Shown here piece by piece: positions 10,617-12,304 of a stretch of 64,000 nucleotides of DNA; position 1 is the stretch's first letter, and the number at the start of each line of letters is the position of its first letter. Source of the DNA: Candidatus Latescibacterota bacterium. GTDB lineage: Bacteria > Latescibacterota > UBA2968 > UBA8231. The notes under the pieces are model-generated. The model ran no database searches. It had not been told where the DNA came from and saw only the letters and a list, made by a program, of their open reading frames with translations. Position numbers and translations under genes: made by a program. The stretch is from NCBI GenBank assembly GCA_965248355.1, contig OZ252098.1, positions 2,592,001 to 2,656,000 on the forward strand, in the 5' to 3' direction.

Positions 10617-11039
10617 ATGGCGAAAACCCGACCACGTCATCAACTCACCCACAACGAGCTTAGAGCATTGGCTTCCAAAGTCCGCTATGAGGGAAGCGGC
10701 GAGCACAAGGTAGAGCGTTGGTGGGGAGGCCTGCCTGAAGGGAGGCAGATGCCTGGAGGGGGAGTAGGAAGGCCTTGGAAGGAGAGCACTTCGATCTGTC
10801 CTCTCGTTGACCTATCTGGAAAAAAGCGAGCTACGAAGATGCTCCGGAAGGCGATCATCAATCGTCAATTCGAGTTCCTGGAGAGAGATAGGGACTTCCC
10901 TTCAAAGGTCTGGTACGAGGATGGGGAAGGCACACTTTGGAGTGGAAGTTGCTTCAACGGAGAAAGAGGAGAGTATAAGGGATGGCCCCTGACGCCTTCG
11001 GAGAAGCAGGCGTTCAAGAGGAAGATGAGAATCCCTTGA
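10617..11039 (+). CDS. Hypothetical basic protein (140 aa), first gene of a low-GC island
   Basis: GAGG RBS; lower GC than the flanks; motifs YEGSGEHK, ICP, FPSKVWY, GEYKGWP; stop overlaps the next start (TTGA). Confidence 0.75.
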   Translation: MAKTRPRHQLTHNELRALASKVRYEGSGEHKVERWWGGLPEGRQMPGGGVGRPWKESTSICPLVDLSGKKRATKMLRKAIINRQFEFLERDRDFPSKVWYEDGEGTLWSGSCFNGERGEYKGWPLTPSEKQAFKRKMRIP

Positions 11040-12304
11040 GGTTCGAGAAGGAGTGGGTTGATTGCGGCCCCAATAAGTCCAAAGAGGAATTAGCCACTCT
11101 CTGCTATCTCCAGATTTGGCTTGGGAGCAACAACACATGCAGGTTCCTTGATGCAGAGGGAAGATATGAGTGGCTGCTTATGCCAGCTGTCAACCTTGCT
11201 GAAGGCCTCGCATTGGATTGGTGGAGCATCTTCGGGAAAAGGGACTACGAGCACAGCCTACTACTACTTCACAGACGTGGCTACCTAGTCCCGGATCTTG
11301 TTCTTGATTTTGATGGATCCCGATTCAGGATCTCCAACAGAGGAGGATCTTGGCCGGAGGAAGTGCATTTCTATCCATGTGATCCAGTGTACCTTTCTGA
11401 AGAAGAGTTCAGATCGACCCTTTCTGGTTTCATTGAAGACGTCGCGTCTCGTCTTCGGAGCAAAGGAATAGAGGACTCCACAACAGCTTCCAGGTGGAGC
11501 AAGATAGAGGAGTCTCTAGGAGACCTGACACAAACCCTCTTCTGCGAAGCAGCGGGAGCTCTTGAGCTTGATCCCTATTTCATCTCCGAGGCTGATGAGC
11601 GATTCATCGAAGGCATGGTCGAGCTGTTCCGCGAGAGGGAACCGTTGATCGAGTTCCTTTCGGGCCTCTCGGATCATTCTTCGAATCGAAGGCGGATCAA
11701 GGACTGGATTGGCCAGATGGATGCCCGATCCAGGGAAGAGTCAGAGCTACCCGGTCTTCGAGAGATTGCTGAACAAGTGGGAGCCTATTTGGGTGGTTGT
11801 GCTCCAGATCGACCTTGGGCAATCGGGTATCGTGCGGCCAAAGAGTTCCGAAGCCTTTTCAGGGGATCTACGGCTTTCTATAAGGAAAAATCGGGTTTCT
11901 CTTTCCAAGATTTGTCCAGCCGCCTGGGTTCTCCTGAGTTTACGGCTGTGGATTCAGACCCTCTTCCCGGCATTTTCGCTATGGGCTCTTCCGGAGAGGG
12001 AACCCCCCGGGTCCATTTGCGCAAACGGGCCTCTCAGGAGGACCAGAATTTCGACTTTGCCAGAGCTGTGGGTTACGTGGCCTGCTTTCCTGACTCTTCA
12101 AGATTCGTGATCAATAACCTGCATCGTTCAAACCGGCAGGCAGTTACTCGAGCCTTTGCCGCGGAGTTGCTGGCTCCGGGAGAGATCGTCTCGGGCATGC
12201 ATGAGGAAGGCCATGATCCCTATCTCATTGCCGATCGTCTCGGCGTGCCAACCCAGGTCGTACAGCACCAGTTGGAGAACAGCCGCCGGATAGCTGCGGT
12301 TTAG
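11036..12304 (+). CDS. Protein with a C-terminal degenerate ImmA/IrrE (DUF955)-like domain
   Basis: C-terminal NFDFARAVG...RQAVTRAFAAELLAP...IADRLGVPTQVVQHQLEN matches the IrrE/ImmA fold, but the HExxH zinc motif is replaced. Probable TTG start at 11036 (ORF open from 10982). Confidence 0.65.
   Translation: MRFEKEWVDCGPNKSKEELATLCYLQIWLGSNNTCRFLDAEGRYEWLLMPAVNLAEGLALDWWSIFGKRDYEHSLLLLHRRGYLVPDLVLDFDGSRFRISNRGGSWPEEVHFYPCDPVYLSEEEFRSTLSGFIEDVASRLRSKGIEDSTTASRWSKIEESLGDLTQTLFCEAAGALELDPYFISEADERFIEGMVELFREREPLIEFLSGLSDHSSNRRRIKDWIGQMDARSREESELPGLREIAEQVGAYLGGCAPDRPWAIGYRAAKEFRSLFRGSTAFYKEKSGFSFQDLSSRLGSPEFTAVDSDPLPGIFAMGSSGEGTPRVHLRKRASQEDQNFDFARAVGYVACFPDSSRFVINNLHRSNRQAVTRAFAAELLAPGEIVSGMHEEGHDPYLIADRLGVPTQVVQHQLENSRRIAAV

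Follow-up and report, generated by a model that had tools for sequence, protein, structure and literature searches.

Two overlapping genes on contig OZ252098.1 of Candidatus Latescibacterota bacterium (GenBank assembly GCA_965248355.1) probably form a mobile type II toxin-antitoxin module similar to the Rosmer systems, with the first open reading frame (ORF1) encoding a putative toxin and the second (ORF2) a neutraliser that carries a pseudo-peptidase domain. The pair occupies positions 10617–12304 of the window, i.e. the whole 64,000-nucleotide stretch that was analysed (contig positions 2,592,001–2,656,000), and coordinates given below are window positions unless another locus or contig is named. 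ORF1 (10617–11039, + strand) encodes 140 amino acids with an isoelectric point (pI) of 10.0 and is assigned to a new protein family whose members are small and standalone; ORF2 (11036–12304, + strand), the putative antitoxin, encodes 422 amino acids from a TTG start and has a pI of 5.1. The overlap of the two genes, their predicted binding in co-folded models, the exchange of ORF1 for the toxin TumE in a distant branch, the decay of ORF1 only and the opposite charge of the two products all fit such a module.

Organisation of the gene pair

The TTG start codon of ORF2 at 11036 shares letters with the TGA stop codon of ORF1 (11037–11039), resulting in a TTGA overlap. An alternative in-frame ATG at 10982 adds 18 residues and gives the 440-residue form found in the protein collection; the TTG was taken as the start because alignments with ORF2 relatives begin exactly at this position, where most of them have a methionine. 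A Shine-Dalgarno-like GAGGA site, read from the sequence, lies at 10607–10611 (+ strand), 5 nt before the ATG of ORF1, and a second GAGGA (11018–11022) is found ahead of the TTG of ORF2. A consensus scan of positions 10300–14200 returned no sigma-70-like promoter, and terminator-like sites in a scan around the pair were at chance level.

The guanine plus cytosine (GC) fraction was 0.54 for ORF1 and 0.53 for ORF2, compared with 0.60 and 0.63 for the two downstream genes on the minus strand and 0.68–0.73 for the flanking genes; the pair lies in a patch of 53–54% GC in a genome of ~ 70% GC. A look for repeats or att-like sites along the borders of this patch brought up short, chance-level matches only. 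An earlier reading of this DNA by a model that saw only the letters and translated reading frames (hereafter the first-pass annotation) had described two low-GC reading frames coupled by a TTGA overlap, the first encoding a basic protein of 140 residues, and the coordinates, overlap, GC content and pI bear this out. Its statement that ORF1 ends in GEYKGWP is incorrect, as this motif occupies residues 118–124 and is followed by a further 16.

Conservation and co-divergence of the pair

Related loci were collected with an ORF2 profile scan of one genome per species, which produced 269 confirmed relatives, of which the best 80 loci were kept (labelled with the prefix L). Upstream DNA was classified by tblastn with four ORF1 queries together with inspection of reading frames. 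At least 560 nt of upstream sequence were available in 74 of the 80 loci; the six with less than 400 nt, including L025 with a partial ORF1 at a contig edge, were set aside. In 61 of these 74 loci, which equals 61 of the 66 loci lacking TumE, a same-strand relative of ORF1 was located directly upstream of ORF2, and the two genes overlapped or lay within ~ 40 nt of each other. The two-gene module of the first-pass annotation is thereby upheld and is conserved as a pair.

ORF1 was uninterrupted in 51 loci, all on the same strand as ORF2 (48 with a start codon by the rule used and three within longer open frames). In ten others it was broken: divided between two frames in five (L001, L008, L026, L042 and L045), interrupted by an in-frame stop in two (L041 and L043) and reduced to a C-terminal remnant in three (L012, L039 and L071). 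Five loci had no ORF1 (L011, L030, L051, L052 and L055), and in the remaining eight (L056–L059, L065, L067, L072 and L079) TumE stood in its place. The labels of the loci included Vicinamibacterales, Gemmatimonadetes, Spirochaetia, Pseudomonadales, many Alphaproteobacteria, Dehalococcoidia/SAR202, Actinomycetota, Planctomycetota, Verrucomicrobiota, Desulfomonilaceae, Rhodothermales, Hydrogenedentota and Binatia, among others.

Pairwise identities between ORF1 proteins and between their ORF2 partners were strongly correlated across 49 gene pairs (r = 0.93, with none of 999 permutations as high; r = 0.88 within the main group). ORF1 and ORF2 travel together, even though correlation alone does not show co-adaptation. 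Clustering of the crude ORF calls made on the 80 loci, 908 in all, brought out no third conserved gene, the only signal being synteny among close relatives.

TumE replaces ORF1 in a distant ORF2 branch

The eight TumE loci correspond to a distant branch of ORF2 with 25–29% identity. BLASTP aligned ORF2 to the protein of L058 with an E value of 1e-24 over residues 62–418, with FILARATGD and RAFAAEFLAP in place. Directly upstream of the ORF2-like frame, and overlapping it, a TumE homologue was present in all eight loci of this branch (tblastn E values of 1e-29 to 1e-44 in the seven loci other than the query's own); the Pfam model PF20126 (TumE) matched the three upstream genes that passed at E ≤ 1e-5. 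Each of the eight ORF2-like proteins, of ~ 530 amino acids, has an extra N-terminal winged helix-turn-helix (HTH) domain recognised by HVO_A0114, MarR or ArsR models. Extra N-terminal HTH domains are common in antitoxins. The best Pfam match of this domain, which takes up the first ~ 100 residues, was in every case HVO_A0114 (PF25212), which takes its name from a Haloferax protein. A plasmid copy of the TumE-type pair in RefSeq is annotated as a 'DUF6516 family protein' followed by an 'ArsR family transcriptional regulator'.

TumE (DUF6516) arrests the growth of Escherichia coli, is neutralised by its cognate partners and reduces the incorporation of 35S-Met (PMC10584680); the main text and available supplements of that paper make no mention of a partner of the ImmA/IrrE or ArsR type. 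Because TumE is found upstream in the distant branch and ORF1 is unrelated to TumE, one ORF2 core, as judged from gene order and similarity, partners two unrelated small upstream proteins, one of them from a validated toxin family. Both kinds of module are present in the isolate Pinisolibacter aquiterrae B13, as L045 (ORF1-type, frameshifted) and L067 (TumE-type, with an HTH-bearing ORF2-like protein).

Decay falls mainly on ORF1

Over the matched region, the reading frame of ORF2 was broken in three of the 80 loci (L043, L051 and L052) and open in the other 77. It remained open in nine of the ten loci with a broken ORF1 and in all 51 with an uninterrupted ORF1; a broken ORF2 beside an intact ORF1 was never seen. 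An open ORF2 without any ORF1 occurred at two loci (L011 and L030). Toxin-antitoxin modules are expected to decay in this way, the toxin being lost and the antitoxin surviving. A further case may be the protein P0002, 82% identical to ORF2, the first 16 residues of which match the start of ORF1 (9 of 16 identical; E = 0.018 in a single comparison) before the sequence runs into the upstream frame of ORF2, which suggests that ORF1 has been deleted.

Two copies of the module (L001 and L008), each with a frameshifted ORF1 and an open ORF2, were found ~ 85 kb apart on contig OZ244929.1. At L052 (positions 5902–6000 of that locus), an in-frame C-terminal ORF1 remnant with 'GEYKGW' directly precedes the frameshifted ORF2, indicating a decayed module.

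Predicted ORF1-ORF2 complex

Co-folding of the two proteins, each with its own alignment, gave a median score of 0.70 (0.62, 0.74 and 0.70 in individual runs), while the best of three controls scored 0.00; among reference pairs, 116 of 157 solved complexes and two of 215 mismatched pairs attained this mark. At least 57% of contacts recurred between runs, and the partner had a predicted local distance difference test score (pLDDT) of at least 71.

On the ORF2 side, the predicted interface comprises residues 12–18, 60, 74–87, 106–107 and 149–188, taking in the conserved G82, E166, F169, C170, D179 and P180. All of it lies within the N-terminal beta-rich domain and first helices (residues 1–188; 11036–11600, + strand), and none of the named contacts involves the IrrE-like domain. 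On the ORF1 side, residues 1–6, 25–29, 88–90, 109–114, 119–123 and 126–136 take part, which cover the G-S-x-E and Y-K-G motifs. The model supports, but does not show, direct binding of ORF1 by ORF2.

ORF2 combines a probable pseudo-peptidase domain with an unrecognised N-terminal region

The C-terminal part of ORF2 (11936–12301, + strand) matched the ImmA/IrrE-like Peptidase_M78 family (Pfam PF06114, IrrE N-terminal-like) with E = 7.3e-8 and 32.7 bits against a cut-off of 22 (residues 340–431 of the 440-residue form), in agreement with the IrrE-like C-terminus recognised in the first-pass annotation from its RAFAAELLAP motif. The motif, at 12149–12178 (+ strand), contains the invariant or nearly invariant residues R372, F374, A376, E377, A380 and P381. 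ORF2 found no match in NCBIfam, and in PADLOC only Cas10d at chance level (E = 0.053). Of the 102 relatives in the protein collection, most are 410–460 amino acids long and aligned end to end with ORF2; those that bear a name are called either 'hypothetical protein' or 'ImmA/IrrE family metallo-endopeptidase', and ten of the 102 carry the Pfam label.

An alignment of 32 ORF2 relatives has F-x-F-A-R-A-V-G-D at the canonical place of the metallopeptidase motif HExxH, represented in the window by FDFARAVGY (12050–12076, + strand); this place was assigned from the profile match rather than from a residue-level alignment to a solved enzyme, and we take FARAVG to stand at the HExxH position of the ImmA/IrrE family. 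The motif was detectable in 97 of the 102 relatives, with arginine at the position of the first histidine in 94 of the 97 and His-Glu in none. The glutamate of AELL is presumably the third metal ligand of IrrE-type enzymes. Since the HExxH zinc site is lost across the family, the domain, on the evidence of its sequence, presumably cannot work as a zincin peptidase, which would agree with the catalytically dead fold proposed in the first-pass annotation. Replacement of HExxH by FARAVG had also been claimed; this is right for the canonical place throughout the family, but a literal HExxH string, HEEGH (residues 389–393; 12200–12214, + strand), exists elsewhere in the clade of the window. It lies off the canonical place, 12 residues after AELLAP, and is limited to 6 of 102 sequences, the window ORF2 and five that are closely related to it.

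The AlphaFold2 model of ORF2 had a pLDDT of 91.6 and a predicted template modelling score (pTM) of 0.89. A whole-chain Foldseek search of the Protein Data Bank (PDB) returned nothing at E ≤ 0.001. The best meaningful match, obtained with the whole 422-residue model, was CapP (7t5t; probability 0.97, E = 0.05, template modelling (TM) score 0.19–0.29), followed by a regulator from Mycobacterium tuberculosis (6cz6; probability 0.90) and IrrE (3dte; probability 0.77), each alignment spanning ~ 190 columns.

The first ~ 300 residues, modelled as a beta-rich domain (residues 1–121) followed by a helical region, matched no family in Pfam, NCBIfam or PADLOC and had no supported relative in Foldseek, a PDB profile search or the ESM Atlas (≤ 0.79). 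The unrecognised N-terminus noted previously, with its LAEGLALDWW and RGYLVPDL motifs, is thus confirmed. Residues 1–121 (11036–11398) are arranged as four strands, a helix, four strands and a helix, an order that recalls single-strand nucleic-acid binders of the Whirly type. A Whirly-like domain is not claimed here, as the resemblance consists of the order of elements and Foldseek probabilities of 0.13–0.18 (MRP1/2 and Why2).

ORF1 represents a new family of small proteins

ORF1 alone matched nothing in Pfam, NCBIfam, PADLOC or PHROGs. When 55 family members were scanned singly in the family libraries, none matched, with ten giving weak DUF1707 hits (best E = 0.009). A word-indexed search recovered only nine relatives of ORF1. 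A profile search of 1.84 billion representatives at 50% identity detected 698 at E ≤ 1e-3, of which 331 also passed E ≤ 1e-10, and nearly all of the 150 matches listed were 60–190 amino acids long.

Residues Y24, S27, H30, K31 and P95 were invariant in the family alignment, and G26, E29, C61, W75, W99, N114, G118, Y120, K121, G122 and P124 were conserved in at least 90% of members. Two motifs stand out. YEGSGEHK (10686–10709, + strand; family consensus Y-V-G-S-P-E-H-K) is a candidate active site, with residues 25–29 in the predicted interface. GEYKGWP (10968–10988, + strand; family consensus G-x-Y-K-G-W/Y-P) contributes residues 119 and 121–123 to the same interface.

The AlphaFold2 model of ORF1 (pLDDT 78, pTM 0.72) consists of a helix, a loop, a helix, three strands and a helix. 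Foldseek searches of the PDB and BFVD gave nothing at E ≤ 0.001 (best PDB E value of 0.09), HigB (5ifg_A; probability 0.35, TM score 0.26–0.34) being a lead only and a CdiA toxin (7m5f_C) scoring a probability of 0.12. PDB sequences searched with the ORF1 and ORF2 family profiles returned chance-level matches only, the best being catalase easC (E = 0.16) and interleukin-4 (E = 0.036). In the ESM Atlas, the nearest clusters were unnamed (0.96), and the nearest named ones, DUF6972 and Ntox50 at 0.77–0.78, are a lead only; no member of the ORF1 family matched either of the two in Pfam. The 'nuclease-like effector' of the first-pass annotation consequently finds no backing in a significant fold or family match.

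Identity of ORF1 with TumE was considered and rejected, as hhalign of the two families gave a probability of 1% and ORF1 had no Pfam match to PF20126; a tblastn search of the window with TumE likewise found nothing (best E = 0.61). Apparent fused forms of ORF1 were also discounted: in a 553-amino acid protein, P0253, P0247 and P0260, a frameshift lets the frame read through into ORF2, whereas P0139 was fused by a deletion. The long proteins carrying the domain included no fusions of the polymorphic-toxin kind.

Neighbouring genes and mobility

The left edge of the low-GC patch is marked by a remnant of a VOC/glyoxalase-type gene (10352–10564, + strand), a pseudogene in which three-frame translation reveals switches of the reading frame. 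Two plasmids encode a 'VOC family protein' that its last 26 residues matched (E = 1e-3), while its 65-residue ORF belonged to no Pfam family. This gene, or a site next to it, may have been where the patch was inserted.

Downstream, the 3' end of ORF2 meets a convergent ORF of 197 amino acids (12301–12894, − strand), the two stop codons overlapping by 4 nt, which is followed by a type II N4/N6 DNA methyltransferase (12967–13932, − strand; Pfam N6_N4_Mtase E = 1.8e-36, PADLOC MTase_II E = 4e-61). The pair converges on a probable restriction-modification locus, as the first-pass annotation had stated. The 197-residue ORF matched no family in Pfam, NCBIfam, PADLOC or PHROGs. Homologues were found on three plasmids, covering 75–98% of the ORF, and one of them, a 'hypothetical protein' of 280 amino acids with an N-terminus ~ 40 residues longer than the window copy, is located beside dcm and vsr. 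It is a fair guess that the ORF encodes the restriction endonuclease of the adjoining methylase. The ORF is in frame with the methylase just upstream, from which it is separated by one stop codon and ~ 70 nt (12301–12967), and dcm and vsr adjoin the plasmid homologue whereas the methylase of the window is of the N4/N6 type. The neighbours on each side had been taken for pseudogenes, which holds for the frameshifted remnant upstream; the 197-residue ORF downstream may or may not be whole, plasmid homologues aligning over 98% of it and one of them having the longer N-terminus. The 'defence island' of the first-pass annotation shrinks in the window to the pair itself and one restriction-modification pair.

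Across related loci, 141 immediate neighbours were scanned (first neighbours only, one or two per locus, with L050, L053 and L055 left out). Restriction or defence-type genes were recognised by Pfam or PADLOC at ~ 11 loci (L006, L011, L026, L041, L049, L051, L056, L064, L069, L072 and L080), and weaker or generic hits at L007, L008, L009, L013, L045, L060 and L078. Links to defence genes are modest and do not establish enrichment, the ~ 11 loci among 141 neighbours being counted without a genome-wide background. Two Chloroflexota loci whose ORF1 copies are among the closest to that of the window, L041 (methylase at 7436–8155 of the locus) and L049 (7784–8506 of the locus), resemble the window in having a type II DNA methylase downstream and in opposite orientation; their methylases are not of the window kind. 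A tblastn search of the 80 loci with the endonuclease-like ORF and the methylase of the window found nothing.

One copy of the pair, with both genes annotated as 'hypothetical protein', resides on a conjugative Agrobacterium plasmid beside repC, between two 'restriction endonuclease' genes and an integrase. Judging by the low-GC patch and this plasmid copy, the module is mobile.

Proposed function and alternative explanations

In the interpretation that we favour, ORF1 would be the toxic effector, its invariant Tyr, Ser, His and Lys residues and the Asn, Tyr and Lys residues probably forming an enzyme site, and its target would probably be nucleic acid or translation. ORF2 would neutralise it by direct binding, covering the conserved motifs of ORF1 with the N-terminal beta-rich domain and first helices, and the ImmA/IrrE-fold domain would most likely have a regulatory or sensing function and so determine the moment of ORF1 release. 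That it senses nucleic acid or phage proteins, as the first-pass annotation suggested, is purely an inference. Such a module may contribute to plasmid maintenance or phage defence. Several observations weigh against this interpretation. Having no significant structural or family match, ORF1 carries no toxin signature, and its model is weak in the middle third (pLDDT of 56–62 for residues 30–60). PADLOC assigns neither ORF1 nor ORF2 to a defence model, RmrA and RmrT of the Rosmer systems included; PADLOC 2.0.0 presumably contains Rosmer models. The window ORF2 has no DNA-binding domain recognisable by Pfam, unlike many antitoxins, and most immediate neighbours of the related loci are housekeeping genes. 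Loci were both found and ranked through ORF2, which biases the sample against broken ORF2 copies, and several of the ORF1 frameshifts come from metagenome-assembled genomes and could be assembly errors, L045 being from an isolate. Finally, the co-fold calibration holds only roughly, as custom alignments were used.

A non-toxic regulatory pair is an alternative, with ORF2 as a signal-sensing scaffold of ImmA/IrrE descent that holds and releases ORF1, a small basic nucleic-acid-binding stress regulator that causes no growth arrest. IrrE, ImmA and CapP, two of which were among the Foldseek matches, are regulators of responses to stress or mobile elements (PMC2701414), and the housekeeping neighbourhood and the lack of a toxin-family match are compatible with this role, which the predicted binding fits as well as it fits the favoured one. 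We nevertheless regard it as rather unlikely, given that TumE, whose toxicity has been validated in E. coli (PMC10584680), is also a partner of this ORF2 core, that the pair is spread patchily over many phyla in a low-GC patch and on a plasmid beside repC, that ORF1 decays while ORF2 is kept, and that the invariant residues of ORF1 are polar and catalytic in type, with no known DNA-binding motif. Reverse polarity, with ORF2 as effector or toxin and the small ORF1 as its inhibitor or regulator, would agree with the larger size and stronger conservation of ORF2 and with an early prediction of COG2856 proteins as the toxin partner of Xre (PMC2701414). It would require an effector without the catalytic HExxH, and a toxic ORF2 would be lethal at the nine loci where it is intact beside a broken ORF1 and at the orphan loci L011 and L030; moreover, TumE replaces ORF1 and not ORF2, and ImmA-domain partners are confirmed antitoxins in Rosmer systems (PMC10440598), all of which makes this arrangement quite improbable. 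Least likely of all is that the pair is an accessory which controls or stabilises the neighbouring restriction-modification system, the four genes moving as one unit. In the window the two pairs do share a low-GC patch and meet tail to tail, and L041 and L049 repeat the arrangement with a downstream methylase. However, most loci have no restriction-modification neighbour and the GC fractions differ (0.60–0.63 against 0.53–0.54); because the restriction-modification genes of the window have no relatives in the 80 loci, the four genes are not a fixed unit.

If ORF1 is a toxin neutralised by ORF2, it would add a new toxin family of 698 representatives at 50% identity with no known fold match, and ORF2 would be a peptidase turned pseudo-enzyme within a toxin-antitoxin module, the neutralising function having moved to a new N-terminal domain. 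The TumE branch would gain a candidate antitoxin, and a single scaffold would for the second time be found to serve toxins that are not related. A more elaborate proposal, which we put forward as speculative and rather unlikely, is that the pseudo-peptidase sensor keeps its old substrate groove for a phage protein or one born of stress, the binding of which loosens the grip of the N-terminal domain of ORF2 on ORF1; that ORF1 is a toxin of undescribed fold and chemistry (a Tyr-Ser-His-Lys/Asn-Tyr-Lys site); that the pair is a new abortive-infection system; and that the ORF2 core is a second 'hub' antitoxin scaffold, with the ORF1 family and TumE as the least number of unrelated toxin families that it serves.

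Comparison with known systems

Proteins with an ImmA domain are known as an antitoxin hub (node D25 in NetFlax; RmrA in Rosmer) with diverse toxins, a toxin-first order in 58% and anti-phage activity in some cases (PMC10440598). The present module resembles Rosmer (RmrT/RmrA) in having two genes, often toxin-first, in which diverse, unrelated small toxins are joined to a partner of the ImmA/IrrE fold, and in being mobile. It differs in that ORF2 has no HExxH and possesses ~ 300 unrecognised N-terminal residues that are predicted to bind ORF1, and in that the branch of the window lacks an HTH domain. Unlike the membrane-depolarising RmrT of the Kita system, ORF1 is a soluble alpha/beta protein in its predicted model. 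Should the module defend against phages, the Rosmer class would extend to members that current defence finders miss.

The small protein also comes first in TumE-TumA systems (PMC10584680), and the distant ORF2 branch appears to be a TumA-type partner because in eight of eight loci its gene follows that of TumE directly and the two overlap; the window ORF1, on the other hand, is not TumE (hhalign probability of 1%). COG2856 proteins such as ImmA, IrrE and CapP, of ~ 160 amino acids with a conserved HEXXH, are often fused to an Xre HTH domain and linked to RelE and PIN toxins (PMC2701414). ORF2 shares their Pfam family and probably their fold in its C-terminal part and has toxin-like partners, but is 422 amino acids long, has R-A-x-x-D/Y in place of HEXXH and carries no Xre domain. 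With Panacea (PanA) the analogy is one of logic only, fold and family being unrelated: a single domain is shared by antitoxins of unrelated toxins and is a proposed sensor, and other parts of the protein neutralise (PMC8832971; PMC10440598).

In the accessible literature, neither the ORF1 family nor an ImmA antitoxin without HExxH was found to be described; an earlier listing is possible, as the NetFlax data were partly covered, and in the NetFlax supplements available neither the three RefSeq accessions of the plasmid homologues nor 'DUF6516' was present. The 'undescribed system' of the first-pass annotation is thus right in so far as PADLOC and NCBIfam hold no named family and plasmid copies are called 'hypothetical protein', and too broad in so far as the general kind, an ImmA-type antitoxin with diverse toxins, is already known (PMC10440598). 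Within that kind, the module differs by the loss of the metal motif throughout the family, by a new N-terminal domain predicted to bind the partner, by a new family of candidate toxins and by a scaffold held in common with TumE.

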